Shown here: positions 1,267-64,000 of the stretch, piece by piece | Numbering within the stretch: position 1 is the stretch's first letter | Layout: each line of letters starts with the position of its first letter | NCBI GenBank assembly: GCA_022820725.1 | Contig: JAJEFA010000001.1 | Span: forward strand, 182,749 to 246,748 | Source of the DNA: Candidatus Binatia bacterium | GTDB lineage: Bacteria > Desulfobacterota > Binatia > Bin18 | Length of the DNA stretch: 64,000 nt | Reading direction: 5' to 3' | The notes under the pieces: generated by a model | What the model was told of the DNA's origin: nothing | Database searches by the model: none | The model's input: only the letters and a program-made list of their open reading frames with translations | Program-made: the position numbers and the translations under genes

Positions 1267-1398
1267 CGGCACAGCCCAGGACCCGACCCTTCCCGAGACG
1301 TGGGATGCATATTGTGTCGATTGCTCCCTCCGGGCCGGCCGGTCGCGCCCTCACCCGGCCCTGCGGGCCACCCTCTCCCAGGGGGCGAGGGTAAAAGA

Positions 1399-1426
1399 GT
1401 AGGGACGACCGGCCGGTCGCCCCTAC
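1399..1426. repeat. REP-like 28-bp palindrome GTAGGGaCGACCGG|CCGGTCGCCCCTAC (one arm mismatch), between the convergent PABS/TPR gene and ispG
   Basis: Seen directly in the sequence. Belongs to the GTAGGGGC...GCCCCTAC palindrome family also found at 3800-3882, 10706-10733, 55000-55027, 57250-57277 and 57317-57344. Confidence 0.6.
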
Positions 1427-2924: not shown

Positions 2925-3803
2925 ATGGGTGCCCAGATCGTCAAAGGCAGGGTCATCGCCCAGTCAGTGTATACGGAACTTGAAGCGGAAATTTCAGGGT
3001 TGATCCAGCGCACCGGACGAAGACCCGTCCTGGTCAGTATTTATATCGGCTCGAACCCGGCTATCGAAGTCTATATTCGATCCATGAATCGGATTGCCCG
3101 GGGGTTGGGGATTGAGTATCGCTGGTACCATCTCCCGGACAATGCCCAAGAGGCTGAGGTGCTGCGTCGTTTGGAGCAGCTGAACCAGGACCCTGAAGTC
3201 ACCGGCGTGATTATTCAGCTCCCCCTGCCTGAACATGTCCGCCGCTCGGTTCTGGTCAACCATATTGCCCCACAAAAAGATGTGGACGGCACCCATCCGG
3301 AAAATGTCGGGGCCGCCGTCACCGGAGAGATACGGATTGGCTCCTGTACCGCCCTGGCCGTCATGCGCCTTTTGGACGCAACCGGGATCGACATGGAAGG
3401 GAAAGAGGCGGTTATTGTCGGACACAGCGACCTGGTGGGGAAGCCGCTCAGCCTGATGCTGGTCGATCGCTTAGCCACCGTGACCATCTGCCATATCGCG
3501 ACCGCTCAGCGGGGGCTGTTAGCCGACCATGTCCGTCGGGCAGAGGTCCTCGTTGTGGCCGTCGGTTCTCCTGGGTTGATCAAGGGCGACTGGGTTCGCC
3601 CTGGGGCAGCCGTGATCGATGTTGGCATCAATCAGGTGGGCTCACGCCTCGTCGGCGATGTGGAATTTGACACGGCCAAAGAACGCGCCGCATTTATTAC
3701 GCCGGTTCCGGGCGGTGTCGGACCGGTGACAGTGTCGATGCTCATGAACAATACCGTCAACGCCTTCCGTACCCAGGTGGGACATCTGTCCGAAGCGAAG
3801 TAG
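2925..3803 (+). CDS. folD: Bifunctional methylenetetrahydrofolate dehydrogenase / methenyltetrahydrofolate cyclohydrolase (FolD)
   Basis: 292-aa ORF with ...VLVSIYIGSNPAIEVYIRSMNRIARGLGIEY..., GHSDLVGKPLSLMLV and VTICHIATAQ motifs typical of FolD. The stop codon TAG (3801-3803) is supplied by the left arm of a REP palindrome. Confidence 0.9.
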   Translation: MGAQIVKGRVIAQSVYTELEAEISGLIQRTGRRPVLVSIYIGSNPAIEVYIRSMNRIARGLGIEYRWYHLPDNAQEAEVLRRLEQLNQDPEVTGVIIQLPLPEHVRRSVLVNHIAPQKDVDGTHPENVGAAVTGEIRIGSCTALAVMRLLDATGIDMEGKEAVIVGHSDLVGKPLSLMLVDRLATVTICHIATAQRGLLADHVRRAEVLVVAVGSPGLIKGDWVRPGAAVIDVGINQVGSRLVGDVEFDTAKERAAFITPVPGGVGPVTVSMLMNNTVNAFRTQVGHLSEAK

Positions 3804-23358: not shown

Positions 23359-25008
23359 ATGCCTGAAGTCGCATATCTCAAAGACTTGGTCATTGTGTTG
23401 GGGGTGGCGGTGGCGGTCGTCACCCTCCTGAGGCGCGCGCACTTTCCCTCGATTGCCGGGTTCATCCTGACCGGGGCGCTCGTCGGGCCGACCGGCCTCG
23501 GGCTCATCAACGACGCCCATCATGTCGAGGTCCTGGCCGAGGTGGGCGTCGTCCTCCTGCTCTTCGGGATCGGGCTGGAACTCTCGCTCGACCGGCTCCA
23601 GCGTCTGTGGAAAGTCATCCTGCTGGGCGGGGGGCTGCAGATCGCCCTCACGGTTGCGTGCACGGCAGTGTTGGCCATGTGGTTCGGACTGTCGCTCGGC
23701 CCCGCGCTCTTCCTGGGCTGTGTCGTCGCGGTCTCCAGCACGGCCATCGTCTTGCGTGCGCTTTCCACGAGCGGCGAACTCGAAGCGCCGCACGGCCGCC
23801 TGGCGGTTGGCATCCTCGTCTTCCAGGACCTGTGTGTGGTGCCGATGATGTTGGCCGTGCCCTACCTGGCTGGAGAAGGGGGCGCCATCGGGGACATTGC
23901 CATGACGGTCGGCACGGCCCTCATGGTCCTCGTGGGGGTGTTGCTCGCTGCGCGCCGTGTCGTCCCCCGCTTGCTCGCGTTCGTGGCCCGGACCCGCGAG
24001 CGCGAACTCTTCATTCTGAGCGTCTTTCTCGTCTGCTTCGGCACGGCCTGGGCATTATCGGTGGCGGGCATCTCCCTGGCCCTCGGGGCGTTTCTGGCCG
24101 GCCTGGTCGTCGCGGGCAGCGAGTTTCGGCACCAGGCGATGTCAGAGGTAATCCCGGCCCGCGAGGTCCTGGCCAGTCTGTTCTTCGTGTCTGTCGGCAT
24201 GTTGCTGAATGTGGCGGACATCGGTGCGCACCTGCTAGCGACCGTCGGGCTCCTGGGCGTCATCCTCATCGGCAAGTTCGCGATTATTCTCGGCACCGCG
24301 CTGCTCCTCCGCCTGCCCTTGCGGGTGGGCATCCTGTCCGCCGCCACGCTGTGCCAGATTGGGGAATTCTCCTTCGTGCTCTTGAACGCCGCTTACGGAA
24401 CCGACCTCCTCACAGCCGCGCTGGCCCACAATCTGCTGATGGCCATTGTCCTCTCCATGCTGCTGACACCGCTGACCATTGCGTTTGGGCCCAGCCTAGT
24501 CGGCGGTGCGGCGTATGTGCCCTGGCTGAACCGACTCTTGGGGGCAGAACCACCCGGCATCGATCTGCCCGAGCCGCCCAGCGGCCATGTCATCGTGGCC
24601 GGCTATGGTCTGACGGGCCAGCGCGTCTGTCGGGCTGTGCGAGGGATGGGGTTGACCTATGTCGCGGTTGACCGGAACCCGGACAAGGTCCGCGCGGCCC
24701 ACGCCGCCGGCGACCGGGCCGTCCTCGGAGACGTTGCGCAACAGGAGGTGCTGGAGGAGTTGGGCTGCCGGCAGGCCCGTCTGGTGGTCGTGAATATCAA
24801 CGACACGAGTGCCGCCGAATCCGCCGTCCGTACAATTCGGGCGACCGCCCCGCACGTCGCGGTGATCGCCCGAGCCCCGTACGAGATGGACAAGGACTCG
24901 CTGCAATCCGCCGGTGCCGCCGAGGTCATTACGGCCGAAGCCACGGCCAGCGAGGCGATCGTGGCAACCTGTCTGGCGGCTCTCCGCACGACGCAGCCAC
25001 CGGCCTAA
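23359..25008 (+). CDS. Kef-type monovalent cation:proton antiporter (CPA2) with C-terminal RCK/TrkA-N domain
   Basis: 12-13 TM N-terminal region with ...ILTGALVGPTGLGLI...LLLFGIGLELSL... and a C-terminal NAD-binding-like GYGLTGQRVCRAV...VAVDRNPD domain. Confidence 0.85.
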   Translation: MPEVAYLKDLVIVLGVAVAVVTLLRRAHFPSIAGFILTGALVGPTGLGLINDAHHVEVLAEVGVVLLLFGIGLELSLDRLQRLWKVILLGGGLQIALTVACTAVLAMWFGLSLGPALFLGCVVAVSSTAIVLRALSTSGELEAPHGRLAVGILVFQDLCVVPMMLAVPYLAGEGGAIGDIAMTVGTALMVLVGVLLAARRVVPRLLAFVARTRERELFILSVFLVCFGTAWALSVAGISLALGAFLAGLVVAGSEFRHQAMSEVIPAREVLASLFFVSVGMLLNVADIGAHLLATVGLLGVILIGKFAIILGTALLLRLPLRVGILSAATLCQIGEFSFVLLNAAYGTDLLTAALAHNLLMAIVLSMLLTPLTIAFGPSLVGGAAYVPWLNRLLGAEPPGIDLPEPPSGHVIVAGYGLTGQRVCRAVRGMGLTYVAVDRNPDKVRAAHAAGDRAVLGDVAQQEVLEELGCRQARLVVVNINDTSAAESAVRTIRATAPHVAVIARAPYEMDKDSLQSAGAAEVITAEATASEAIVATCLAALRTTQPPA

Positions 25009-25309
25009 GCATGCCAGACACGCCCGCGGTAGCCTCCCGAGCGTTGCCCACCCACGGCCGAGGCCACGGGCGGCCGTCCCGCTCTTTGCCTTCTGTCTGA
25101 AGATTTTTCGGCAGGGCGATCCTTTTCCCTAAGTCGTTCACCCGCGCGTGCCCAGCCTCGGCCCGTAAGTCCCTGATGTTCTTACACTTGCCCACGACCG
25201 CGCCACCCGCCGTGTTGGCGTGTATGAATATCCTTTCTCAAAAAAGACAATTCTGTGAGTGGGGGAAATACGTTTACCTAGCGCAAATTACGATGCCGTG
25301 TAGCGCGTC

Positions 25310-25380
25310 TCTCTCCTCCTTAAGGAGTGCGGGCTTCCAGCCCGCAAGCGGCCAAGATGGCCGCTCTCCCAGGCGGGGAG
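25310..25380. repeat. Copy of the three-hairpin repeat family (CTCCTTAAGGAG / GCGGGCTTCCAGCCCGC / GCGGCCAAGATGGCCGC / CTCCCAGG) in the kef-hydrolase intergenic region
   Basis: Same hairpin 1 as the copies at 63061-63200 and 63861-64000. Hairpin 2 carries compensatory GGGC/GCCC to GGCC/GGCC changes that preserve the stem. 3' CTCCCAGG motif conserved. Confidence 0.5.
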
Positions 25381-25560
25381 CCACACCCCCCCCGACCGCT
25401 TAGGGCAGGCCCGTATCCTTCCCGACGAGCGCGGACTGGCACGGCTACAACGTATCGTAAACCGCTCTAGCGTTCTTCTTTCACCACTACCGTTGCGCGT
25501 CCCACTTGTGTTCCACAGTATTTTCGCCTACCCGAGTGAGACAACAAAAAGGAGGAAGAT

Positions 25561-26205
25561 ATGGAAGAGCACATCACCTTTCCGGTTGGCGAGGGCGATA
25601 ACACCATCACCCTGGAAGGGCTCCTTTCGACCTCACACCAGGCTCCCGCGCTTGGAGCGGTGCTGTGTCATCCCCATCCGCTGTATGGGGGCGAAATGCA
25701 CAACAACGTAGTGTCAGCGTTGGCCCACGCCTTCCAAAAGGAGAATATCGCCACGCTGCGATTCAATTTCCGTGGGGTGGGACGCAGTGAAGGCACCCAC
25801 GACGAAGGCGAGGCCGAGCGCGAGGATGTGAAAGCGGCGGTCACGGCTCTGCTGGACCGGCAGCCCGTCTCGACCGTCGTGGTTGCCGGCTATTCGTTTG
25901 GCTCGATGGTCGGCCTGCAAGCCGGGGCGGAAGACGACCGCGTCCACCGCCTGATTGGCGTCGCGTTCCCGCTTGGCTTTCGCGACCCGGCATTTCTTGT
26001 CAACGTGACCAAACCGATCCTGCTCATCAGCGGCGACCGGGACAGCTACTCCCCCATCCCCGACCTGACCGAGCTGGTTGCAAAAATATCAGCCCCCAAG
26101 CAGCTCGAAACCCTGAGCGGCGCGGACCATTTCTTTATGGCCAGAGAGGGCGAAGTCGCCCAGGCCGCAGTCTCGTTTCTTCAGCAGACCGAGAGCAAAT
26201 CATGA
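25561..26205 (+). CDS. Alpha/beta-fold hydrolase (COG2945-like)
   Basis: GYSFGSMVG nucleophile elbow, N-terminal HPHPLYGG motif; AAAAAGGAGG Shine-Dalgarno 6 nt upstream of the ATG. Confidence 0.7.
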   Translation: MEEHITFPVGEGDNTITLEGLLSTSHQAPALGAVLCHPHPLYGGEMHNNVVSALAHAFQKENIATLRFNFRGVGRSEGTHDEGEAEREDVKAAVTALLDRQPVSTVVVAGYSFGSMVGLQAGAEDDRVHRLIGVAFPLGFRDPAFLVNVTKPILLISGDRDSYSPIPDLTELVAKISAPKQLETLSGADHFFMAREGEVAQAAVSFLQQTESKS

Positions 26206-53746: not shown

Positions 53747-56267
53747 TTTTTCTACTCTGGCCGGCTACTTTGGCCGGAAATTCCTGAACCGGCTTGACCA
53801 GTTTCAAGCGGGTGCCCAGGCGGCCCCACCAGCTCTGCTGCCAGTGGCGTGTCTGCGCCTGCCAGTGTTCAGTCTGTTCTTCGTGCTGCCGGGCAATCTT
53901 CTCCCAGTTGTTGCGCTGTTCTTCCATCCACGCCCTGGCTTTCTCCAGCTCGCCGATCCACGCCTGCTGCTCCTGCACCATACGTTCTCGTTCCTCCGCC
54001 TGGGTCTGCCAGTTCGTCCGCTGCGCTTCCAACCACGTTCTGCCTGTTTCGAGCTCCTCTATCCAGCCCTTGAGTTCCCGAATGAAGGTATTCTGGGTCT
54101 CGACCACGTTGCGCCAACTGGCCTGCTGGCCTTCCAGCCAGACTTTCCCGCGCCGGAGTTCCGCGGTCCACTGCCGCAGCCTGACCAGCGCGTCGAACGC
54201 TTCTTCAAGGACCGGGCCGTCGGCGTGCGGTCCCCGCTCCCGGTACAACCGGAGGCCGCGGCGGGCGGCGGTGGTTATTTCCTCCACCCCGCGCTCGAAT
54301 TGGTAGGCGTGCGAGGCATTAGCGCCGTGCCAGCGATAGCGCACCAGGGGACGCGCCAGAAAGCCCACCCGATACCTCAGGCACAGCCGGAGCCACATGG
54401 CATAGTCACAGGCAAAGCCCAGGTCCCGGTCGAACCCGCCCTGTTCGATGAGCGCGCGGCGGCGGGCCAGGACGGTCGGCGCGCACACCCGGTTGCCGTT
54501 GAAGAGCAGGGTCCGAAAATACTCCGGCCCGTCCCAGACCGTGTCGTCGGTCGCGTCCTCAATCCAGTCGGCAAACGCGCTTGGCGCCGACTCCTCGACC
54601 AGCGTTTCCACCCCGGAATGGACGAAACCGACGGTTTCGTCCGCGCTCAACACCTGGACCTTGCACTCCAGATTTTCGGGCAGCATCACATCGTCCTGAT
54701 GAAAGAGACACACAAACGCTCCACCGGCGAGTTCGAGACAGCGGTTCCAATTGGCCGGGATACCCAGCCGCTCCGGGTTGCGGTGCAGCTGTATTCTCGG
54801 GTCGGAAAAGGATTGAACAATATCGAGCGTGGCGTCGGTTGAGCCGTCGTCAACAACCAGGAGTTCAAAATCCTGATAGGTCTGGTGCAGGATGCTGCGC
54901 AGCGCCGCTTCAATATACTTCGCCCCGTTATACGTGGGCAGACAGACGCTCACCGCGCGGGCCGATGTCGGTCGCGGCCTCTCCTCACCCGCCGGGAGAG
55001 TAGGGGCGACCGGCCGGTCGCCCCTACTTGCTTCCGTTGGTCTATCCCGCACGGCCTCATACACGGCCTCCATATCCTGCGCGTACGCCTGCGGGTCTCG
55101 GATGGGTGTCGAGGCTGGCGTGAGCTGTTGACGCAACCGGGTATCGGTCCGCAGCCGCTCCAGGCAGCGCCCCAGGTCGTCGGCGTTCTCGGGTTCAAAC
55201 AGCAGGCCGTTCACCCCGTCCCGAATGACTTCGGGCAGGGCGCCGCGCCGGGCGGCAATGACCGGCAGGCCGGCCTGAAGGGCCTCTCGCGTGACCAGCG
55301 AAAAGGTTTCCTCGCACACGCTGGGCACAACCAGCACGTCGTGCCGGGCCAGAATCGCACTCAATTCGTCGTGGGCATAGGTGCCGCAAAAACGAATGGG
55401 CAGGCCGGCCGCGTCCGCCTCCAGTCGGTCGGCATAGGCGCGCCGGTCCGCGGCCCGCTCACCGTACAGGGAGGCGGCAAAACTGCCGGCCGGCACACCG
55501 TGTACGGCCTGGATCAACAGATGCGGGCCTTTATGCGGCACCAGCGCACCGATATACAACACCCGCATGGGCTGCCGGTCGTCCCGGCGTCCATATGGGA
55601 TAGGCACGACACCGGGGGCCAGGACCTGGAGACGCGGTTCCACAAAAGGAAAAATCTCCTGCATCCTCTCGGCCAGAAATCGGGACGGAACAATGACCCG
55701 CTGTGGCATATGCAGGAGTTGTTCAAAATAGGCAAAGCGCCGGCGGGCCTCCTCCGCAGTCGTCTCCGCCTGGAGGCAGGCAATACAGCGCTCGCCCCGG
55801 TCCGGTCCCGGACACAGCCGGGTGTGGTTGTCTATCAGGTGGATGCGGGCGCAGGCAAAAAAGAAGTCGTGCAGGCTGAGCACGACCGGATAGCCGAGCC
55901 GGGCCGAGGTCCGGAGTACGCTCCCGGACAGATGGATGACGTGCTGAACGTGCACGACATCGGGACGCGAGTCGGTCAGTATCCGGTGGAACGCCTCGTC
56001 GAGAAACGGATGGTCATACTCCAGGCGAAAATGTGAGGCATGGCTGAGAGTGTTGACCACCCGCACGACGCGCACCCCTTTGTGTCCGCTGACAGCCGGC
56101 GCATCCTCCCGCACCGAGCATTCCTCGGCAGCGGGGTCGGTGGTCCGGGCAAAGACCGTCACCGCATGGCCTCTCTGGGCGAGCGCCTGAGCCAGGGTTG
56201 CGGTAACGAGTTCCGCCCCACCCCACTTCTCGGGCGGATAGCCGTGCACGACCTGGAGAATACGCAT
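53739..56267 (-). CDS. Trifunctional-architecture glycosyltransferase: GT4 domain - linker containing a REP palindrome - GT2 domain - C-terminal W-rich coiled-coil repeats
   Basis: GT4 domain: MRILQVVHGYPPEKWGGAEL...CGTYAHDELSAILARHDVLVVPSVCEETFSLVTREALQAGLPVIAARRGALPEV. GT2 domain: VSVCLPTYNGAKYIEAAL...LLVVDDGSTD. C-terminal region: about 35-aa repeats WLEGQQASW...WIEELETGR / WLEAQRTNW...WIGELEKAR / WMEEQRNNW.... 8-nt overlap with the downstream GT2-GT4 gene. Confidence 0.8.
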   Translation of the reverse strand: MRILQVVHGYPPEKWGGAELVTATLAQALAQRGHAVTVFARTTDPAAEECSVREDAPAVSGHKGVRVVRVVNTLSHASHFRLEYDHPFLDEAFHRILTDSRPDVVHVQHVIHLSGSVLRTSARLGYPVVLSLHDFFFACARIHLIDNHTRLCPGPDRGERCIACLQAETTAEEARRRFAYFEQLLHMPQRVIVPSRFLAERMQEIFPFVEPRLQVLAPGVVPIPYGRRDDRQPMRVLYIGALVPHKGPHLLIQAVHGVPAGSFAASLYGERAADRRAYADRLEADAAGLPIRFCGTYAHDELSAILARHDVLVVPSVCEETFSLVTREALQAGLPVIAARRGALPEVIRDGVNGLLFEPENADDLGRCLERLRTDTRLRQQLTPASTPIRDPQAYAQDMEAVYEAVRDRPTEASRGDRPVAPTLPAGEERPRPTSARAVSVCLPTYNGAKYIEAALRSILHQTYQDFELLVVDDGSTDATLDIVQSFSDPRIQLHRNPERLGIPANWNRCLELAGGAFVCLFHQDDVMLPENLECKVQVLSADETVGFVHSGVETLVEESAPSAFADWIEDATDDTVWDGPEYFRTLLFNGNRVCAPTVLARRRALIEQGGFDRDLGFACDYAMWLRLCLRYRVGFLARPLVRYRWHGANASHAYQFERGVEEITTAARRGLRLYRERGPHADGPVLEEAFDALVRLRQWTAELRRGKVWLEGQQASWRNVVETQNTFIRELKGWIEELETGRTWLEAQRTNWQTQAEERERMVQEQQAWIGELEKARAWMEEQRNNWEKIARQHEEQTEHWQAQTRHWQQSWWGRLGTRLKLVKPVQEFPAKVAGQSRKND
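55000..55027. repeat. REP-like 28-bp perfect palindrome GTAGGGGCGACCGGCCGGTCGCCCCTAC located in-frame inside the GT4-GT2 linker (encodes SRGDRPVAPT)
   Basis: Seen directly in the sequence; identical to the copy at 57317-57344 and nearly identical to 1399-1426. Confidence 0.6.
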
Positions 56268-56274
56268 AGGCCGT

Positions 56275-57264
56275 TTATTTCTGTTTTATGCTCTCCTGTA
56301 AAGAAATCCGCCGTACCAGGGAGGGCGCCAGGCTCTGCTTGCGTTCGCCGAGCCAGGTGCCCCATAGTGCCGCAAGATGCCAGGCCAGGGCCAGGGCCCC
56401 CCAGCGCAGCCCGACCCGCAGCCGTCCCCGGTGTGTGAGCCAGCGCCAGAACGACAGGTCCCGGCGGGCGGCGCGCCAGGCTGTTGACGGCGTACGGCCC
56501 AGGCACAGACTGGAGGCCGCATCCAGATCGCTCAGCGCGCGGGCATGATCGAAATGCCGCCGGAAATTGGGCCAGGGGCCATACCCGTGGGAATGGTACA
56601 CCAGCGAATCGGCCCGATAGGCGGTCTGATAGCCGGCCTCAAGCACCCGCCTGGCCCACAGCTGGTCCTCGGCGAATTCCACCTCGGGGAAAGGGTGTTG
56701 CTGCCATACGCTGCGGCGCAACACCGAACTGACGTTCGAGAAAAAAGAAAAAGGAGCCGGATTGTCGGCATAATCGGGGGCGGCGCTGCTGTTCAGGCAG
56801 GATTCCGCCCGGCCCGACAGCTCGTCTTCAACAATGCGCCGCCACTCCATGGGGTGACAGTGCGGGCGGGGGAGATGGCGGCTATACGCCCCGGCAATGG
56901 ACGAATCGGCCCGGAGGGGGGCCAGCAGCGCGTCCAGCCAGTCGGCATTGGCGGGAGTCGCGTCCTGGGTCAGAAACACCAGATAGTCGCCCCGCGCGTA
57001 GCTTGCGGCCAGATTGCGGGTTTTGCCGTGGCCGAACTCCTGGGGCGGGATCCGTATGACGCGCACCGTGTGGGCCGCAAGAATGGCCAGGGTGTGATCG
57101 CGCGAACCGGAATCCACGGCAATGATCTCGTCGAGTTGAAAGCGGCCCCGTTGTTGACCGATACGGTCCAGCACTTCGGCCAGATAGCGCGCGCCGTTTT
57201 TTGTGACCAGGAGAACGGATATACTTGGCAGATCGGTCATAGCGTCTGGGTAGGGGCGACGCAT
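56275..57264 (-). CDS. GT2 glycosyltransferase (rhamnosyl/galactosyl-transferase-like)
   Basis: ISVLLVTKNGARYLAEVL...IIAVDSGSRD...VFLTQDA motifs. Track start ATG (57264) is the centre (GCATGC) of a REP palindrome whose left arm (AGGGG) lies at Shine-Dalgarno distance. An alternative start is the MTDLPS Met at 57240. Confidence 0.75.
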   Translation of the reverse strand: MRRPYPDAMTDLPSISVLLVTKNGARYLAEVLDRIGQQRGRFQLDEIIAVDSGSRDHTLAILAAHTVRVIRIPPQEFGHGKTRNLAASYARGDYLVFLTQDATPANADWLDALLAPLRADSSIAGAYSRHLPRPHCHPMEWRRIVEDELSGRAESCLNSSAAPDYADNPAPFSFFSNVSSVLRRSVWQQHPFPEVEFAEDQLWARRVLEAGYQTAYRADSLVYHSHGYGPWPNFRRHFDHARALSDLDAASSLCLGRTPSTAWRAARRDLSFWRWLTHRGRLRVGLRWGALALAWHLAALWGTWLGERKQSLAPSLVRRISLQESIKQK

Positions 57265-57277
57265 GCGTCGCCCCTAC
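57250..57277. repeat. REP-like 28-bp perfect palindrome GTAGGGGCGACGCATGCGTCGCCCCTAC
   Basis: Seen directly in the sequence; overlaps the 5' end of the GT2 gene. Confidence 0.6.
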
Positions 57278-57316
57278 ATCCCCTCTCGGGCTGGGTGATG
57301 TTCATTGTGTCGTGAG

Positions 57317-57344
57317 GTAGGGGCGACCGGCCGGTCGCCCCTAC
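57317..57344. repeat. REP-like 28-bp perfect palindrome GTAGGGGCGACCGGCCGGTCGCCCCTAC
   Basis: Seen directly in the sequence; 40 nt from the previous copy, between the GT2 start and the methyltransferase stop. Confidence 0.6.
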
Positions 57345-59083: not shown

Positions 59084-60763
59084 CTAACGGGACACCAGGA
59101 AATCGCCGATGACGAGATGATCCATGCCCGTCTGCCGGAACATGGCAATGGCGTCATGCGGCGTGTTCACGATCGGGTCCCCCTTCAGATTGAACGACGT
59201 GTTGAGCAGCCCGTGAATCCCCGTCAGTTTGCCGAATTCGGTAATCAGCGCGTGGTAACGCGGGTTGGCCTCGGGGGTCACGACCTGCGCGCGGGCCGTG
59301 GCATCGACGTGCATGGCGGCGCTCAGGTCGCGCCGGCCGGCCGGGGTCGTCGGCAGCGCCATGGTCATATAGGGGGCCGACATGGACGTGGGGAAATAGC
59401 GCCCGCGCTGCTCCACCACCACCGAGGGTCCGAAGGGCCGCCAGTCCTCGCGGTGCTTGACCCGGTTGTTCACCCGATCCTTCATGGCCGTATCAGCGGG
59501 GTTGGCCAGGATGGAGCGGTTCCCCAGGGCGCGCGGTCCCATTTCCATGCGGCCCTGAAACCAGCCCAGGATATTGCCGTCGGCCAAAAGCTCGGCCCCG
59601 CGGGTGGTCACGTCCGAGCAGGCTTCATACGAGACACCCGTCTCCTCAAGGGCGGCTCTGATGTCCTGATTGCGCCATTCCGGGCCAAAATAAGCGTGGG
59701 GCAGGGGGACAGGGCGTTTGCCCGTTTCCCTGGCGTACAGCGCAAATGCCGCGCCGATGGCGCAACCCGGGTCGTTGGCCGCCGGCGGCACATAGAGGCG
59801 CTGCACCGCGGGATGGGCGGCCAGTTCGCCGTTCATCTTGGCGTTCAGGCCCACCCCGCCGGCCAGACAGAAGTCGTGCCAGCCGGTCTGCGCAAAGAGC
59901 AGATCAAACAGATGCGCCCCGATCCGCTCGGTCACCGCCTGGAGCGAGGCCGCAATATGCTCATCCGTGCCGTTGATCGGGTTTCTCCGATACGCCCGCG
60001 GCGGCCCGAAAAAACGACTCAGCCCCACCGGCACCTCGGACAACCAGCTCACGATTGCCTGCGACCAGTAATCGTACGGCCGGGTGACAAACCCCTCCGG
60101 CGTGGGGGTCACGATTTGATCGAACACCTCGGCAAAGCGGTCCTCGCCGTACGAGGCCAGGCCCATGACGCTGCCCTCGCCGTCCAGAAACGTAAACCCG
60201 AGAAAATTGGTCACCGCGGAGTAGAGCATGCCCAACGAGTGCGGCATGGGGATTTCGGCCAGGTGGGTGATCCGCGTGCCCTCGCCCTTTGCCAGTATCG
60301 CCGTGACCGCCTCTCCGCGCGCGTCCAGCGAGAGGATATTGGCTTTTTCAAATGGCGAGCACAGGAAGGCGGTCGCCAGATGGCAGTCGTGGTGGTCGAT
60401 CACTTCGAGCCGGACGCCGACAGTTTCGGCGAAGGTCTCGACATAGCTGCGGATCATTTGCAGGTTTCTGAAATAGCTGAGCAGGTCGTGCGGATGACGC
60501 TGGAAGTGCGAGAAAAACGGCTCGACCTTCCAGTCGTCGCACAGGCTGCGGGCACAGTCGTAATAAAACGCCAGAGCGTCGATGTCACGGAAATCGACCC
60601 CGGCCTTACGCAGGCAGAAGCGGATGGCCTGATGGGGGAATTTGCCGTGGGCGTGTTTTTGCCGGATCAGGCGTTCTTCCTCGGCATAGGCGACCAGCTC
60701 CCCGTCCCGGACCAGGGCCGCGGACGCATCGTGAAACAGCCCGGTCACACCCAGGACGATCAT
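59084..60763 (-). CDS. NodU/CmcH-family carbamoyltransferase
   Basis: MIVLGVTGLFHDASAALVRDGELVAYAEEERLIRQKHAHGKFP... N-terminal domain and the C-terminal YrdC-like half, about 560 aa. Confidence 0.85.
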   Translation of the reverse strand: MIVLGVTGLFHDASAALVRDGELVAYAEEERLIRQKHAHGKFPHQAIRFCLRKAGVDFRDIDALAFYYDCARSLCDDWKVEPFFSHFQRHPHDLLSYFRNLQMIRSYVETFAETVGVRLEVIDHHDCHLATAFLCSPFEKANILSLDARGEAVTAILAKGEGTRITHLAEIPMPHSLGMLYSAVTNFLGFTFLDGEGSVMGLASYGEDRFAEVFDQIVTPTPEGFVTRPYDYWSQAIVSWLSEVPVGLSRFFGPPRAYRRNPINGTDEHIAASLQAVTERIGAHLFDLLFAQTGWHDFCLAGGVGLNAKMNGELAAHPAVQRLYVPPAANDPGCAIGAAFALYARETGKRPVPLPHAYFGPEWRNQDIRAALEETGVSYEACSDVTTRGAELLADGNILGWFQGRMEMGPRALGNRSILANPADTAMKDRVNNRVKHREDWRPFGPSVVVEQRGRYFPTSMSAPYMTMALPTTPAGRRDLSAAMHVDATARAQVVTPEANPRYHALITEFGKLTGIHGLLNTSFNLKGDPIVNTPHDAIAMFRQTGMDHLVIGDFLVSR

Positions 60764-60969
60764 GCCTCCCCCTCGGCGGCAAGCTGGCTGCGGACCGCGT
60801 GGGCGATGGCGGCCGGATCGGTCAGGGCCGAGGATGAGACAATGCTCAGGAACAGCCGCGCGGCCTGGAACACCTGCGCCTCGGTCAGGGTCGTGGCGAA
60901 CTCGTCCTCAAGCGCGCGCAGGGCCGCCGCGCGCTGCGTCTCGTCCAGGAAACGTCCGTTCTCCGGCAT
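60760..60969 (-). CDS. Small hypothetical protein (69 aa), translationally coupled (4-nt overlap) to the carbamoyltransferase
   Basis: ATG behind CAGGAGGAG; acidic/helical sequence; no recognisable homology. Confidence 0.4.
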   Translation of the reverse strand: MPENGRFLDETQRAAALRALEDEFATTLTEAQVFQAARLFLSIVSSSALTDPAAIAHAVRSQLAAEGEA

Positions 60970-60985
60970 GTGGTCTCTCCTCCTG

Positions 60986-61022
60986 CTTTCCCTTCTCCTG
61001 GGAGCGCGGGCATCTTGCCTGC
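60986..61022. repeat. Truncated copy of the three-hairpin/TIR element (…CTCCTGGGAGCGCGGGCATCTTGCCtGC…) between the hicB stop and the small ORF
   Basis: About 30-nt near-identity with the left end of the 61505-61582 copy. Confidence 0.4.
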
Positions 61023-61027
61023 TTCTC

Positions 61028-61273
61028 CTATTGATTCATCACGCCCAGCATCTTATTGGCGTAGTCTTTGCCGCACGTAATGGGAGGTAGCGGTTTGCCG
61101 TCGTTCTTGTACAGGGCAATCGTTTCGTCCACAATTTCGCATAATTCCGCAAAGACTGCTTTTTCGTCTTTCCCGTGACAGCCGCCATAGAACAGTCCCG
61201 GACAGCTCCCAACAAAGCACTGATCTTCGTCGGACCATTCAACAATCTTGACGTACCGGGCGCTCTCTTTCAT
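61028..61273 (-). CDS. hicB: HicB-family type II antitoxin
   Basis: ...YVKIVEWSDEDQCFVGSCPGLFYGGCHGKDEKAVFAELCEIVDETIALY matches the HicB N-domain pattern (Y.V..E...G.Y.A.VPDLPGC..-G-T.EEA..). 4-nt overlap with hicA. Confidence 0.6.
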   Translation of the reverse strand: MKESARYVKIVEWSDEDQCFVGSCPGLFYGGCHGKDEKAVFAELCEIVDETIALYKNDGKPLPPITCGKDYANKMLGVMNQ

Positions 61274-61485
61274 CGCTTGGACTCCTCAATCGCGGCCTTT
61301 ACAGCTTTCTCCTGATAGTGCTTTGCATCTGCCCCAAGTTTACCGGCGATAGTGACGGATTTAGTCACCCTGGGATGCACGAAATTTCTATGACTTCCTT
61401 TTCCGCCCCGATCCACAAACCCTGCTGCTTCGAGGTCTCTGATAAGGGCTCTGATTTTTCGAGGCATCCGTATTATAGCGGACAC
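61270..61485 (-). CDS. hicA: HicA-family type II toxin (mRNA interferase)
   Basis: KIRALIRDLEAAGFVDRGGKGSHRNFVHP... contains the HicA GSH...HP signature; 71 aa. Confidence 0.65.
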   Translation of the reverse strand: MSAIIRMPRKIRALIRDLEAAGFVDRGGKGSHRNFVHPRVTKSVTIAGKLGADAKHYQEKAVKAAIEESKR

Positions 61486-61504
61486 GCAGGGCGGCCCCTA
61501 TATG

Positions 61505-61582
61505 TTCCTTCTTCTCTCCTGGGAGCGCGGGCATCTTGCCCGCCTTGCCTTTGCGGGCTGGAAGCCCGCACTCCCAGGGGGG
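61505..61582. repeat. Inverted-orientation copy of the three-hairpin element with terminal inverted repeats CCTGGGAG ... CTCCCAGG (MITE-like), abutting the wzt stop codon
   Basis: CTCCTGGGAG-CGCGGGCATCTTGCCCGC-cttgccttt-GCGGGCTGGAAGCCCGC-aCTCCCAGGGGGG. This is the reverse complement of the hairpin 1 / hairpin 2 core of the copies at 63061 and 63861, with an 8-nt insert between the hairpins. Confidence 0.55.
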
Positions 61583-61583
61583 A

Positions 61584-62789: not shown

Positions 62790-63059
62790 TTACAATAGTT
62801 TCACAATCGCCGCGACCGCCGTTACGATGCCCAGCCCCATCAACCAGAGATGCTTGTATAAAGCCTCAAAACGCTCCGCCATCCACGTTTCCAGGGCCGC
62901 GATTTCAGCCTTCACCTCAGCGATATCGGCCTTGGTCGCCACACTCTCGGTAAACGCCTCCCGGATCGTGTCCGTGATCGCCTCGGCCTGTTGCGCCTCA
63001 AAGCCCGCCGCGGTCAGCGCCTTGGCCGCGTGTAAGGTATCAAACGTTGCGCTCGCCAT
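62790..63059 (-). CDS. DUF1640-like small coiled-coil protein with C-terminal membrane anchor
   Basis: MASATFDTLHAAKALTAAGFEAQQAEAITDTIREAF...ATKADIAEVKAEIAALETWM...LWLMGLGIVTAVAAIVKLL; start codon directly abuts the repeat copy. Confidence 0.45.
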   Translation of the reverse strand: MASATFDTLHAAKALTAAGFEAQQAEAITDTIREAFTESVATKADIAEVKAEIAALETWMAERFEALYKHLWLMGLGIVTAVAAIVKLL

Positions 63060-63060
63060 A

Positions 63061-63200
63061 GGGCCCCCAGCCTACCAACTTGCCCGGCAAAACGCAAAGC
63101 TCCCGCCCTCCTGTTCCTGGAGGGAGGGGGCTCCGGGAGGGCGGGCTTCCAGCCCGCAGGCGGGCAAGATGCCCGCGCTCCCAGGGGGGAAAGAGGAAAT
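63061..63200. repeat. Full-length copy 1 of the three-hairpin element (140 bp)
   Basis: ...CCCTCCtgttcctGGAGGG...GCGGGCTTCCAGCCCGC-ag-GCGGGCAAGATGCCCGC-gCTCCCAGGGGGG-aaagaggaaat; 97% identical (4 mismatches in 140) to the copy at 63861-64000, exactly 800 bp away. Confidence 0.6.
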
Positions 63201-63207
63201 CTGCCTT

Positions 63208-63441
63208 TTAATCAAAGATGTCCGGGGGAAGCTGGAACACATGGATAATGTTCCTGAGCATCCGCACGGGAATTTCCGTCTTATTCCCGTGGTAGGGAAT
63301 TGTACTATGGATTTCCCTGCCATCAATGTCGGGATGATAAATCATGCGGTGGCTTCCCTTCCCGCGTGTCACATGAATGAAAAAACGGCGATCATACGCA
63401 CGGAGACGGCGAACAACGTCTGCATATTCCCGAGACCGCAT
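63208..63441 (-). CDS. hicA: HicA-family type II toxin (divergent)
   Basis: ...FFIHVTRGKGSHRMIYHPDIDGREIHSTIPYHGNKTEIPVRMLRNII... contains the GSH....HP core and a C-terminal region resembling the dsRBD-like HicA fold. Confidence 0.5.
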   Translation of the reverse strand: MRSREYADVVRRLRAYDRRFFIHVTRGKGSHRMIYHPDIDGREIHSTIPYHGNKTEIPVRMLRNIIHVFQLPPDIFD

Positions 63442-63453
63442 GGCGGGTCCAGG

Positions 63454-63810
63454 CTAGGCGGTGACCGGCTCGAACGTTTCTGACCGTGGTTCCGGGAGGG
63501 GGATGTTCCCGACCCGCAGATGGGTCAACGACCCCTCCCGATGAGCGAGCTGCCCTTTCAACGCCTCTCGTTTGGCCTCCGCATACATCGTGAAATACTG
63601 GGGTTCCGCAGGGATGAAGATATTATCCAGGGTGTCATGCTGGACCGCGAATGTCACCTGCGTCACAATGGCGTCATACAAGTCCTCCAGGGCTTTCTCG
63701 AAGGTCTCTCCGTACCCCATCAGACTCATTTCCAGGGCAATCGCGCACCAGGAAGCATCGTCTTCCTGTATGCCAAGCACGTTGAGGTTCAGTTCCAGTT
63801 TCAGGTCCAT
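63454..63810 (-). CDS. hicB: HicB-like antitoxin (118 aa)
   Basis: Located immediately upstream of the HicA-like gene with a 12-nt spacer. N-terminal half ...WCAIALEMSLMGYGETFEKALEDLYDAIVTQV... is compatible with the HicB RNase-H-like antitoxin domain. Weaker assignment than for the 61028 cassette. Confidence 0.45.
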   Translation of the reverse strand: MDLKLELNLNVLGIQEDDASWCAIALEMSLMGYGETFEKALEDLYDAIVTQVTFAVQHDTLDNIFIPAEPQYFTMYAEAKREALKGQLAHREGSLTHLRVGNIPLPEPRSETFEPVTA

Positions 63811-63860
63811 TACGCATCCCCCTGCTCGCTCGTGATGCTATTCAGGACAGGTCGGCCATA

Positions 63861-64000
63861 GGGCCCCCAGCCTACCAACTTGCCGGGCAAAACGCAAAGC
63901 TCCCGCCCTCCTGTCCCTGGAGGGAGGGGGCTCCGGGAGGGCGGGCTTCCAGCCCGCAGGCGGCCAAGATGCCCGCGCTCCCAGGAGGGAAAGAGGAAAT
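63861..64000. repeat. Full-length copy 2 of the three-hairpin element, truncated by the window end
   Basis: Direct repeat of 63061-63200; with copy 1 it brackets the hicBA cassette. Confidence 0.6.

Follow-up and report, generated by a model that had tools for sequence, protein, structure and literature searches.

The repeats in the window, by which we mean the whole 64,000-nucleotide stretch analyzed here, are most probably REP (repetitive extragenic palindrome) units, largely arranged as REPIN-type inverted doublets, of a family tied to one clade of RAYT (TnpA_REP) proteins. We give this reading a probability of roughly 85%. RAYTs are domesticated, REP-associated tyrosine transposases, HUH-Y1 enzymes related to the IS200 transposase. 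In all likelihood the element is non-autonomous and, like a REPIN, is moved by a transposase encoded elsewhere. The repeats are best explained as a known kind of element, represented by a little-described, cross-phylum family. We recommend REP/REPIN as their annotation, in place of small-RNA gene, MITE or spurious ORF.

The repeat unit and its doublets

The repeat unit is 25 nucleotides long and consists of a seven-base-pair G+C stem, an RGA triloop (GGA or AGA) and a GCTCCCAG tail, with the consensus 5'-GC NNN C N-RGA-N' G N'N'N' GC-G(C/G)TCCC(A/G)G-3'. On the opposite strand the conserved tail reads as a foot, CTGGGAG(C/T) or CTGGGACC, whose core (GGAG/GGAC) lies one base off the stem. Tail variants in the family are GCTCCCAG and GGTCCCAG. 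There are two subtypes, hp1 (T-GGA-A) and hp2 (A-AGA-T), which differ chiefly in the loop-closing pair and in one loop base (TGGAA versus AAGAT). A doublet is composed of two units in inverted order with their tails pointing outward. Hairpins 1 and 2 of the original prediction are not unrelated; both are inverted copies of the one 25-nucleotide unit. The eight-base-pair terminal inverted repeats that it described (CCTGGGAG/CTCCCAGG) are confirmed, although the copies at 63.1 and 63.9 kb each show one mismatch; they appear because two inverted units carry outward tails.

All five copies originally reported exist where they had been placed. The window holds nine units, forming four inverted doublets (25321-25372, 61519-61577, 63133-63184 and 63933-63984) and one singlet (60998-61022). 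All nine are intergenic, and four match the consensus exactly in the consensus scan. They are listed below together with the local composite repeats, with scores from a covariance model, R1, that was built solely from units flanking metagenomic RAYT genes.

25321-25345, minus strand: REP unit hp1, GCGGGCT-GGA-AGCCCGC, with variant tail ACTCCTTA; left half of doublet 25321-25372; intergenic, between ORFs 23359-25008 and 25561-26205; R1 25.6 bits, E 0.0026; three mismatches in the consensus scan
25348-25372, plus strand: REP unit hp2 with compensated stem, GCGGCCA-AGA-TGGCCGC, tail TCTCCCAG; right half of the same doublet; R1 29.5 bits
60998-61022, minus strand: REP singlet hp2, GCAGGCA-AGA-TGCCCGC, with one A.C mismatch; between a hicB-like gene (61028-61273) and a 69-aa ORF (60760-60969); R1 37.0 bits
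61519-61543, minus strand: REP unit hp2, exact consensus; left half of doublet 61519-61577; R1 41.8 bits, E 1.5e-06
61553-61577, plus strand: REP unit hp1; right half of doublet 61519-61577; R1 32.2 bits
63055-63200, no strand assigned: local composite repeat, continuing to 63244 for a total of 190 nt; D1, 146 nt, 97% identical to 63855-64000
63133-63157, minus strand: REP unit hp1, tail CCTCCCGG; left half of doublet 63133-63184; R1 29.9 bits
63160-63184, plus strand: REP unit hp2, exact consensus; right half of doublet 63133-63184; R1 41.8 bits
63855-64000, no strand assigned: second copy of the local composite repeat (to 64044, past the window end); 97% identity
63933-63957, minus strand: REP unit hp1; left half of doublet 63933-63984; R1 29.9 bits
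63960-63984, plus strand: REP unit hp2 with uncompensated stem, GCGGCC / GCCCGC, C.C mismatch; R1 30.3 bits

The units translate into peptides such as AGKMPALPG and AGWKPALPG, and they lengthen several ORFs in six-frame ORF lists. The window also carries a separate GTAG...CTAC family, at 1396, 54997, 57247 and 57314.

The number of copies is far above chance. Each hairpin motif, with up to three mismatches allowed, has 11-13 matches versus 0.7 expected, a count that none of 100 shuffles equaled. Across 73.8 kb, made up of the window and 9.8 kb more of the same scaffold, the 25-nucleotide consensus scan found 20 units, with none in a reversed-sequence control; 18 of the 20 lie within one 13-kb stretch, a clustering that counts against the REPIN reading. 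Model R1 picks out the window's nine units and no others: they score 25.6-41.8 bits, the next match 13.3 bits.

Covariation of the stem

With three stem pairs unconstrained, a scan of genomes found unit matches in Acidobacteriota, Verrucomicrobiota, Chloroflexota, Binatia, Proteobacteria and others, and inverted doublets are common in these other genomes as well. The earlier claim of a repeat family with covarying stems holds up well in this collection: 119 of 146 matches (82%) are fully complementary at the three free pairs, versus 1.6% by chance, with at least 12 stem variants. Among 36 distinct sequences, 93% of cells are paired and 29 have changes on both sides, and such two-sided changes are present at all three free pairs. 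None of 500 shuffles matched the observed paired fraction, the count of cells changed on both sides, or the covariation score. The loop-closing pair covaries too (A-T, G-C and T-A), and the RGA loop and the tail are invariant. The compensatory stem noticed at 25348-25364 is real, and its GCGGCC/GGCCGC form recurs at window-equivalent position 66328 and in many other genomes; the unit at 63960 represents an uncompensated half-step. Further uncompensated mismatches occur at 60998 and at window-equivalent 64738. Selection acts on structure, as had been proposed, and most likely does so via recognition by a transposase.

Folded as single-stranded DNA, the doublets reach -22.7 to -28.9 kcal/mol (z -3.6 to -7.2 versus shuffled sequence). 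In the doublet at 25321-25372 each unit forms its own hairpin and the terminal repeat closes the pair (-22.7 kcal/mol; z is -6.8), whereas the doublet at 61519-61577 forms a single long hairpin, with energies of -27 to -28.9 kcal/mol and z values of -6.5 and -7.2. Where both stems are identical, one long hairpin and two hairpins are both possible. The individual hairpins are favored as the conserved structure, because the two stems differ in the 25.3 kb and 66.3 kb copies and in those of loci L073, L208 and L210. A comparison of G.T with A.C stem mismatches was uninformative as to the functional strand, both kinds being present. Extended inverted flanks are not a general feature of the units (in-register test, mean of 4.7 versus 3.9 matches in 14). 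By eye, such flanks can be seen in a few genomes (L011/L040, L031, L100 and L121).

Association with RAYT genes

The RAYTs paired with this family belong to one clade, which numbers more than 4,000 proteins. RAYTs flanked by units score 88-99.5 bits on NCBIfam model NF047646 (cutoff 80), with five from the clade of L073 (Binatia) at 93-99.5 bits, and they fall below the IS200 model cutoff (18-26 bits versus 55). At locus L027, for example, a RAYT gene at 1724-2332 (NF047646 88.3 bits, with a Pfam Y1_Tnp match) is bracketed by inverted units at 1663-1687 (minus strand) and 2365-2389 (plus strand). The best solved structure for these RAYTs is 4ER8, E. coli TnpA_REP (E 3e-8).

We gathered 80 metagenomic RAYT loci by protein similarity alone. 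A unit lies within 400 nucleotides of the RAYT gene in 68 of them and on both sides in 58; the relaxed unit finder used here demands stem complementarity, and therefore these counts test location, not structure. Unit density is 4.2 per kb near the RAYT gene versus 0.28 per kb farther off and 0.20 per kb in a reversed control. Orientation is biased as well, with upstream units mostly on the minus strand (78 versus 35) and downstream units mostly on the plus strand (92 versus 43). At L208 the called RAYT gene contains units within its 3' end; at L073 the RAYT reading frame continues into the flanking units. The eight-nucleotide foot and the RGA triloop are kept across at least six phyla, which suggests that the enzyme reads both. 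The association further suggests that, beyond Proteobacteria, enzyme and repeat have moved or endured as a pair.

By analogy with the E. coli and Pseudomonas systems, each unit would fold into a hairpin in single-stranded DNA, and the RAYT would bind this hairpin and the conserved foot, then cut and rejoin the DNA. We infer the cutting and rejoining of a single-stranded unit from E. coli TnpA_REP (PMC3479197; PMC6006769). Units or doublets would be copied or moved to new intergenic sites, and the RAYT gene would stay single-copy.

Relatives of the window and the possibility of orphan REPs

The original prediction had suggested a search for a cognate transposase elsewhere. RAYTs flanked by units occur in relatives and across the family. 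A tblastn search found no RAYT gene in the window or the further 9.8 kb of the same scaffold. One kilobase of this extension holds more units and a DUF1640-like gene, with no RAYT. It is unlikely, though it deserves weight before the other alternatives, that the repeats are orphans or relics, descended from RAYT-linked REPs in a genome that retains no active RAYT and spreading or shrinking by homologous recombination, duplication and replication slippage. The lack of a RAYT in 73.8 kb agrees with this, as do the uncompensated stem mismatches in several units (60998, 63960 and window-equivalent 64738). Moreover, the rearrangements are long direct repeats that include unique flanking sequence (the 190-nucleotide, 97% identical repeat; the duplicated wzt 3' end in L215), and they resemble recombination more than site-specific transposition. 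However, every close relative recovered via its RAYT gene has that gene flanked by near-identical units. Loci L073, L208, L209 and L210 have hp1+hp2 doublets on both sides of the RAYT, with few or no mismatches to the window consensus. In addition, L209 is syntenic with window-equivalent 70.7-72.5 kb, which suggests that the RAYT of this genome may sit just beyond 73.8 kb. The exact consensus of four of the nine window units argues against long decay. Six RAYTs share 84-86% identity with that of L073; the five that were traced all came from other samples.

Units are gained, lost, inverted and changed in copy number between close relatives. Their presence varies at operon junctions. L216 has four tandem units at a site where the window has one, the block containing the 25.3-kb doublet is inverted in L218, and the 3' end of wzt is duplicated in L215. 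At the junction between wzt and the carbamoyltransferase gene, one relative has neither an inserted gene nor REP units, the window has hicAB with units, and a relative at 96% identity has an NYN gene with units.

A structured RNA as an unlikely alternative

The original prediction also raised a small-RNA family. A structured small RNA or cis-regulatory RNA, such as a protein-binding GGA-loop hairpin or an mRNA stabilizer, is a very unlikely explanation for the repeats. The covarying stem and conserved RGA triloop would suit it, and some units lie just upstream of ribosome-binding sites (the singlet at 60998 and a unit on the viral contig L004, for example). A GGA in a hairpin loop also resembles CsrA-type binding sites. 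This last idea was set aside as improbable from the loops themselves, since AGA loops lack GGA, and a doublet has its hp1 loop (GGA) on one strand and its hp2 loop (AGA) on the other. E. coli REPs are known to affect mRNA stability (PMC6006769).

The arrangement of the units gives the small-RNA reading no support. The order of hp1 and hp2 in the doublet at 61519-61577, which starts 2 nucleotides after the wzt stop codon, is reversed relative to the other window doublets, yet the flanking genes at 61.5 kb and 63.1 kb are all on the minus strand. The units also form inverted pairs around RAYT genes. Rfam 15 gave no match in the window at the gathering threshold, and only sub-threshold noise at E <=10 in 60.9-64 kb; tRNA and tmRNA scans gave nothing relevant. 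The T-run expected of an intrinsic terminator does not follow the hairpins, and the one terminator-like site (versus 2.9 expected) lies on the strand opposite to the flanking genes.

Local composite repeats and hicAB loci

The two copies that had been described as 97% identical, which span 63055-63200 and 63855-64000 in this analysis, are part of a repeat that reaches 190 nucleotides on the extended contig, and they are spaced 800 nucleotides apart. On the plus strand this composite repeat consists, in order, of the ATGGC start of a DUF1640-like gene (minus strand), a promoter-like stretch, 'hairpin 0' (63106-63124), the REPIN doublet and the last 37 nucleotides of hicA. The stretch, TTGCGT...TAGGCT, is promoter-like by eye; a sequence scan did not report it. 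Hairpin 0, counted earlier as part of a three-hairpin architecture, was rejected as a third conserved hairpin: it is found near only one of 146 units in other genomes and belongs to the local, longer repeat.

The composite repeats bracket a hicB-like/hicA pair at 63208-63810. Pfam HicA_toxin matches occur at 63208-63441 and 61270-61485, and each of the window's two hicAB pairs lies between unit-containing direct repeats; that at the singlet 60998-61022 (D12) pairs with 61515-61550 over 36 nucleotides at 89% identity, with a spacing of 521 nucleotides. The larger local repeats, with their 190-nucleotide length, 800-nucleotide period and duplicated gene ends, look like products of recombination or duplication and not of clean REPIN transposition.

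This bracketing is also what might be expected of an integron-like cassette array, in which the repeats would serve as attC-type sites between toxin-antitoxin and other small genes, an explanation we consider more doubtful still than an RNA. Across three relatives, the same operon junction is either empty or occupied by hicAB or by an NYN-domain gene. L208 and L210 share the neighboring gene order from RAYT to DNA ligase; between repeat clusters that are alike in composition, one of them has an AAA_14/DUF4143 gene, and the other has a PIN-domain (VapC-like) cassette. However, no tyrosine-recombinase domain occurs among the called genes and ORFs screened for domains, and GTTRRRY/RYYYAAC core sites were not seen on reading the element ends. 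Unit orientation is mixed, the 25.3 kb doublet stands alone between housekeeping-type genes, an inserted DUF433/DUF5615 cassette in L215 has no units, and the duplicated segments take in unique flanking DNA.

Within the REP/REPIN interpretation, it is conceivable, if improbable, that REP clusters and the RAYT mark or drive the exchange of small-gene cassettes, through HUH-Y1 chemistry or REP-to-REP recombination; such exchange would be a functional analogue of integron cassettes. It would fit with the direct repeats around both hicAB pairs, with the varying content of the wzt-carbamoyltransferase junction, and with the different genes found between similar repeat clusters in two genomes of shared gene order. 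The cassettes occupy intergenic junctions of conserved operons. Those seen are hicAB, a VapC-like PIN-domain gene accompanied by small partner ORFs, an NYN nuclease, HTH_3, AAA_14/DUF4143 and DUF1640-like genes. Whether REP clusters promote gene gain and loss can be asked at the polysaccharide-export operon, which is conserved apart from its polymorphic toxin-antitoxin cassettes bracketed by REPs.

Least probable of all is a classical MITE, which would derive by deletion from a DDE-type IS and be moved by its transposase with target-site duplications. The eight-base-pair terminal inverted repeats, the 55-65 nucleotide size and the several intergenic copies fit. However, the flanks of five doublets were read for direct repeats and none had any; the gene that inverted units enclose encodes an HUH-Y1 RAYT and not a DDE transposase; half-unit singlets and tandem direct arrays are common, as in REP clusters; and a nearby IS1595-type ORF shows a zinc ribbon only, without these ends. 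What survives of the MITE-like description is the non-autonomous behavior and a transposase encoded elsewhere.

Comparison with known systems

Six exact 17-mers of the unit returned no paper in a full-text literature search. The closest likeness is to the REP/BIME/REPIN and RAYT systems of E. coli and Pseudomonas fluorescens (PMC3116915, PMC3479197, PMC5581495, PMC6006769), which share a short G+C-rich extragenic palindrome with a conserved foot, inverted doublets able to form one long hairpin, and singlets and clusters. The alternating Y and Z units of E. coli BIMEs are comparable to the alternation of hp1 and hp2, and a single RAYT gene flanked by inverted units (L027, L073, L208-L210 and 68 of the 80 RAYT loci) resembles a REPtron. 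Canonical RAYT-linked REPs are marked by GT[AG]G (PMC3733652, PMC6006769). In contrast, the foot described here has a GGAG/GGAC core and no GT[AG]G, and we therefore do not file the units in the GTAG-tagged REP superfamily. Described REPs are also mostly lineage-specific and share only GTAG, whereas the RGA triloop and eight-nucleotide tail of this family extend across phyla.

Several other groups of elements share some of these features. Subterminal hairpins of IS200/IS605 are likewise single-stranded DNA hairpins recognized by a homologous HUH-Y1 enzyme (Pfam Y1_Tnp); however, the hairpins here are inverted, not direct, around the gene and far outnumber it. Correia/NEMIS and ERIC MITEs are similarly small, non-autonomous, intergenic and foldable, with terminal inverted repeats, but here no target-site duplication was seen, the partner is not a DDE enzyme, and half-units occur alone and in tandem. 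TIRYTs ('TIRtrons') are RAYT-like genes with terminal inverted repeats, including an Acidobacteria group (PMC3733652). They resemble the present system in occurring outside Gammaproteobacteria with flanking inverted repeats that lack GTAG, and, as here, some of their repeats (Koribacter ORF1552) show self-complementarity and recur in the genome. Compared by repeat motif, their reported shared GGGGWSAS does not match the foot.

By its motifs, the associated RAYT resembles subclass 2.4 (Bertels group 4). That subclass is characterized by NH[IFV]H, WQ and YIxNNP, a length of about 194 aa and REPs inserted in the gene (Table 1, PMC6006769); the RAYTs here have NHVH/NHTH, WQ/WM and YIENNP and are 201-254 aa long. 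The REP insertions reported in the gene recall the units in the RAYT 3' end of L208 and the read-through at L073. However, the REPs reported for subclass 2.4 carry GT[AG]G and are 'long' or 'double-foot', and its flanking repeats are of only modest abundance, unlike the family described here. Group 4/subclass 2.4, which this RAYT clade resembles, had not been linked by earlier surveys to abundant repeats of this type.

Repeat units in the window

The repeat in the window is most probably a REP hairpin of 25 nucleotides with a seven-base-pair stem, an RGA triloop, and a tail. All copies named in the original prediction are present by reading of the sequence and with a repeat finder (25310-25380, 60986-61022, 61505-61582, 63055-63200, and 63855-64000). 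Between the final two copies, which are spaced 800 nucleotides apart, identity is 97% (repeat finder). With up to three mismatches allowed, each hairpin motif has 11-13 matches in the window versus about 0.7 expected, a number reached by none of 100 shuffles. The element had been described as two unrelated hairpins with separate terminal repeats; it is instead one unit present twice, in inverted order. In tail orientation the unit is GCGGGC-W-RGA-W-GCCCGC-N-CTCCCAG. One subtype (hp2, loop AGA) is GCGGGCA-AGA-TGCCCGC-GCTCCCAG, and the other (hp1, loop GGA) is, as the reverse complement, GCGGGCT-GGA-AGCCCGC-ACTCCCAG. The 8-bp terminal inverted repeats CCTGGGAG/CTCCCAGG do exist, and result from the outward-pointing unit tails of such a doublet. 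All nine window units are situated between ORFs:

25321-25372, doublet (inverted unit pair)
60998-61022, singlet (single unit)
61519-61577, doublet (inverted unit pair)
63133-63184, doublet (inverted unit pair)
63933-63984, doublet (inverted unit pair)

A near-exact counterpart of the window (ENA ERZ23491296, KELL22-1 scaffold_116, 155,676 nucleotides; 2 mismatches in 12,417 overlapping bases) supplies 9.8 kb past the window end, where we carry the window numbering on. Scanned with the 25-nucleotide consensus, the combined 73,810 nucleotides contain 20 units. Of these, 18 fall within the final 13 kb; the reversed sequence, used as a control, has none.

The two hairpins are separated by 2 to 15 nucleotides among the copies of this scaffold. 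Doublets with identical stems fold as one long single-stranded DNA hairpin (-27 to -28.9 kcal/mol, z -6.5 to -7.2). The doublet at 25.3 kb, where the stems differ, forms two hairpins with the terminal repeat closing both, and the conserved structure is thus the individual hairpin. An additional hairpin ('hairpin 0', CCCTCC...GGAGGG) had been counted as part of the element, but it lies near only one of the 146 units listed from other genomes and is therefore outside the family; here it is carried by a longer local repeat of about 110-190 nucleotides, with three copies within 1.7 kb. Elements of this type (CCCCTCC-N(2-7)-GGAGGGG, often followed by TGSCGC...GCGGC-GGGGTGGGTT) make up a further small repeat family that accompanies REP clusters in this lineage and rarely does so elsewhere. 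They occur at window 63106-63124, at about 840-1050 of L127 (same scaffold, beyond the window end), and at 3470-3530 and 4400-4740 of the relative L215.

Distribution and covariation of the unit

Viral contigs scanned with the three inner stem pairs left free gave six matches, in five of which the free positions are perfectly complementary, with four different stems. A scan of one genome per species, with the loop base relaxed to R and the tail base fixed as G, identified at least 119 loci and at least 146 units. Among the matches listed, hosts include several Acidobacteriota classes, Verrucomicrobiota, Chloroflexota, Candidatus Binatia, Alpha- and Gammaproteobacteria (including the isolate Labrys miyagiensis and Rhodospirillaceae SYSU D60007), Myxococcales, Planctomycetales, Cloacimonadales, and Obscuribacter; these names come from record titles, and those of MAGs may include binning errors, for example 'Akkermansia' and 'Bifidobacteriaceae'. 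The usual arrangement elsewhere is CCTGGGAGCGC-hairpin, a variable spacer of a few tens of nucleotides, and hairpin-GCGCTCCCAGG, and singlets and tandem direct arrays are likewise found.

The structure of the unit is conserved with covariation. All three free pairs are Watson-Crick in 119 of the 146 listed units (82%, versus 1.6% by chance), which carry at least 12 stem variants. Across 36 distinct sequences 93% of cells are paired, and both-side changes occur at all three free pairs (29 cells). Because the genome scan fixed 18 of 25 positions, these three pairs alone test covariation there. None of 500 column shuffles matched the observed paired fraction, both-side-change count, or covariation score; sliding the partners out of register lowers pairing to 19-47%. 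Given this family-wide complementarity, the compensatory stem GCGGCC/GGCCGC noted at 25.3 kb is real, and is a common variant rather than a one-off. The foot (tail) and loop are invariant, as expected of a site recognized by a protein.

Association with RAYT genes

In a Pyrinomonadaceae locus (L027) two inverted units, tails outward, enclose a 202-amino-acid ORF that matches Pfam Y1_Tnp and the NCBIfam model NF047646, 'REP-associated tyrosine transposase' (RAYT; 88.3 bits, cutoff 80). A homologue with 54% identity (tblastn) is encoded on a Candidatus Binatia chromosome (L073), where hp1 and hp2 units with 0-2 mismatches to the window consensus lie on both sides of the gene.

We gathered further RAYT loci solely through the similarity of their proteins, with no regard to DNA repeats, and inspected the best 80 of 561 confirmed relatives, which are the top-scoring loci and not a random sample. 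Under a relaxed definition (seven-base-pair stem with at most one mismatch, loop of 3-8 nucleotides, then G[CG][TC]CC), a unit lies within 400 nucleotides of the RAYT gene in 68 of these 80 loci and on both sides in 58; since this finder demands complementarity, its counts test location and not structure. Units are thus located around RAYT genes, at 4.2 per kb nearby, 0.28 per kb farther off, and 0.20 per kb in a reversed-sequence control. Their tails mostly point outward from the gene, as the strands are mainly minus upstream (78 minus, 35 plus) and plus downstream (92 plus, 43 minus). On inspection, most of 23 loci that fail a stricter pattern have variants of this unit, with tails such as GGTCCCAG, GCTCCCGG, or GCTCCCAA, or four-nucleotide loops. 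GGA (101) and AGA (54) make up most of the loops in the 80 loci, and covariation extends to the loop-closing pair (A-T, G-C, or T-A).

A covariance model built from RAYT-flanking units only, with no window sequence, was run over the window with filters off. All nine window units were recovered, at 25.6-41.8 bits (E 1.5e-06 to 0.0026), and the best match besides them reached 13.3 bits (E 0.76); these E-values are rough, as the model was short-calibrated. This recovery is the strongest single tie between the window repeats and the RAYT family.

The enzyme clade and a possible RAYT of this genome

The RAYT clade comprises 4,408 proteins at E <= 1e-20, called 'REP-associated tyrosine transposase', 'REP element-mobilizing transposase RayT', or plain 'transposase' where a name is given. 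Organisms named include Binatia, Terriglobia, Pyrinomonadaceae, Blastocatellia, Labrys, Rhodocyclaceae, Armatimonadota, and Fimbriiglobus. Five members of the L073 (Binatia) clade score 93-99.5 bits with NF047646 and only 20-26 bits with the IS200 model (cutoff 55). Among solved structures, E. coli TnpA_REP (4ER8) is the top match by sequence (E 3e-8). By its motifs (NHVH/NHTH, WQ/WM, YIENNP) and lengths (201-254 amino acids) the clade fits, provisionally and by published description rather than by a tree, subclass 2.4 (Table 1, PMC6006769), which equals group 4 (PMC5581495). REP insertions within the gene are a reported trait of that subclass (PMC6006769); in the close relative L208 the called RAYT gene contains units at its 3' end, and in L073 the RAYT open reading frame continues into flanking units.

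In L208 (2698-3312) and a second close relative, L210 (2257-2871), the RAYT occupies one shared locus, in the order TPP enzyme, DUF4160/DUF2442 pair, acetyltransferase, RAYT, a gene of about 500 amino acids, and, further on, DNA ligase. This is consistent with vertical, single-copy inheritance. In L073 and in another relative, L209, the neighborhood of the RAYT is a different one.

No RAYT gene was found by tblastn in the window or its 9.8-kb extension. The units could be orphan REPs in a genome devoid of an active RAYT, a reading we consider very unlikely. L209 is syntenic with this scaffold at 70-90% amino-acid identity, and its RAYT is 86% identical to that of L073. With this synteny, and with homologues of named origin at about 70% identity, the organism is probably one of the Candidatus Binatia. 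Five of the six RAYTs 84-86% identical to the L073 protein were looked up; all are from other samples, and every contig long enough to judge has the same doublets around the gene. Positions 269-1951 of L209 are collinear with 70,673-72,529 here, and about 2 kb beyond this segment its RAYT directly follows a unit cluster. Our scaffold has a unit cluster at 73,649-73,770, at the edge of the sequence read, so from gene order the cognate RAYT may sit just beyond 73,770.

Alternative explanations

The structured small-RNA family of the original prediction, or a cis-regulatory RNA, is very unlikely: the window has no Rfam match, hp1 and hp2 have opposite orders at 61.5 kb and 63.1 kb although the neighboring genes are all on the minus strand, and within a doublet the GGA loop is on one strand and the AGA loop on the other. 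REPs are known to have secondary effects at the RNA level, and these units may have them as well. The MITE-like element that was also suggested is disfavored, since no target-site duplications were seen in the element flanks and the partner enzyme is HUH-Y1, not DDE. An integron attC array is very unlikely: unit orientation is mixed, the ends of the elements show no core sites on reading, and the genes screened include no recombinase. Against terminators speak the lack of T-runs after the hairpins and the single terminator-like match, on the non-transcribed strand, a count below shuffle expectation.

Proposed action and variation between relatives

In the systems studied (structure and activity of E. 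coli TnpA_REP, PMC3479197; REPIN concept, PMC3116915; background PMC6006769), REP hairpins in single-stranded DNA are bound by the RAYT, which recognizes a short conserved foot adjoining the stem and cuts and rejoins the strand; REPs and REPINs are thereby spread, with the RAYT gene kept at one copy. The units of this family most likely act in the same way. From this analogy we infer enzymatic activity on this family's foot, in one strand or the other, and the copies in this genome may still be mobile.

Unit populations differ between close relatives. One relative (L216) has four tandem hp2 units at a place where the window has a single unit, and another (L214, 83% amino-acid identity) has none throughout the same operon. 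The carbamoyltransferase-wzm junction contains a unit cluster in L215 and only a 'ghost' (CCCCCCCTGG-AAGGAAG) in the window. A block of about 105 nucleotides with the 25.3-kb doublet is inverted in L218 (94% identity) between collinear genes (window 25262-25385, L218 655-760). In the window an inverted duplication of about 20 nucleotides flanks this block (around 25285-25305 and 25441-25462), and L218 has a 4 x 20-nucleotide tandem repeat beside it.

In the last 13 kb, unit clusters are interspersed with small accessory genes. These comprise two hicA/hicB-like pairs, several DUF1640/CCDC90-like genes, one for an IS1595-type zinc-ribbon protein, and a 76-amino-acid ORF that is antitoxin-like by eye and has no Pfam match. 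The hicB-like/hicA pair at 61028-61485, within a polysaccharide-export operon between wzt and a carbamoyltransferase, has hp2-bearing direct repeats on both sides (60994-61029 and 61515-61550; 36 nucleotides, 89%, 521-nucleotide period). The other pair is flanked by a 190-nucleotide unit-bearing repeat (63055-63244 and 63855-64044, the second extending past the window end; 97%, 800-nucleotide period) that holds the last 37 nucleotides of hicA, a REPIN, hairpin 0, and the ATGGC with which the next gene starts. One copy is flanked by a doubled 25-nucleotide sequence, ATGGCCGACCTGTCCTGAATAGCAT (8709-8733 and 8931-8955 of L001, which extends this scaffold beyond the window), and the repeat looks like a templated insertion or duplication rather than clean transposition.

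The wzt-to-carbamoyltransferase junction is REP-free and 44 nucleotides long in L214 (4696-4740), REPIN-hicA-hicB-REP in the window (60970-61583), and in L215 (3369-4779; 96% identity) is occupied by an NYN-domain gene and a unit cluster, together with a second copy of the wzt 3' end. L215 further carries an HTH_3 gene between direct repeats of about 130 nucleotides with units, and a DUF433/DUF5615 pair without units. L208 and L210 share neighboring gene order and have repeat clusters of similar composition, but the genes between these clusters differ: one relative has an AAA_14/DUF4143 gene, the other a PIN-domain gene accompanied by small partner ORFs. Such arrangements could mean that cassettes are exchanged with the help of REP clusters, which nevertheless seems unlikely: the duplicated segments extend into unique sequence beside them, units are lacking from one inserted cassette, and REPs may just pile up in dispensable DNA.

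At L001 7147-7917 (64873-65643) a 256-amino-acid ORF has an IS1595-type transposase zinc ribbon as its sole confident domain and a sub-threshold DUF2158 match; no DDE catalytic domain was detected in it, and it may thus be a transposase remnant or domesticated fragment. A DUF1640/CCDC90-like gene at L127 330-665 (about 73146-73481) contains tandem repeats of about 60 nucleotides and is broken by an N run (scaffold gap), and the assembly is unreliable in this repeat-rich stretch.

Comparison with known systems

The window repeats are a system of the REP/BIME/REPIN-RAYT kind. The foot of this family is CTGGGAG(C/T), with its core GGAG/GGAC one base off the stem, whereas the main REP superfamily has GT[AG]G (PMC3733652, PMC6006769). 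Its foot and RGA triloop are kept across phyla, while described REPs are largely lineage-specific. Its RAYTs resemble those of group 4 / subclass 2.4, where no such abundant repeats had been reported. Acidobacteria 'TIRYT' genes are accompanied by non-GTAG inverted repeats with the motif GGGGWSAS (PMC3733652), which does not match this foot, a comparison of described motifs and not of proteins. A full-text literature search gave no match to the unit sequence.

Other palindromic repeats of this scaffold are headed by GTAG: GTAGGGGCAATGCATGAATTGCCCCTAC, within an 85-nucleotide repeat (L001 6270-6354 and 6830-6914, about 65876-66520), and GTAGGTCGGRTTAGCCGCAGGCGTAAKCCGACAT (L001 166-212 and 714-760). 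Each pair brackets a small gene, a DUF1640-like gene and a 120-amino-acid ORF, respectively. A second palindromic family, GTAGGGGCGACCGGCCGGTCGCCCCTAC, has GTAG and CTAC at its opposite ends (window 1396-1426, 54997-55027, 57247-57277, and 57314-57344). REPs of this 'double-foot' type have been described for RAYT subclass 2.4, and a second REP-RAYT pair may therefore exist in this genome.
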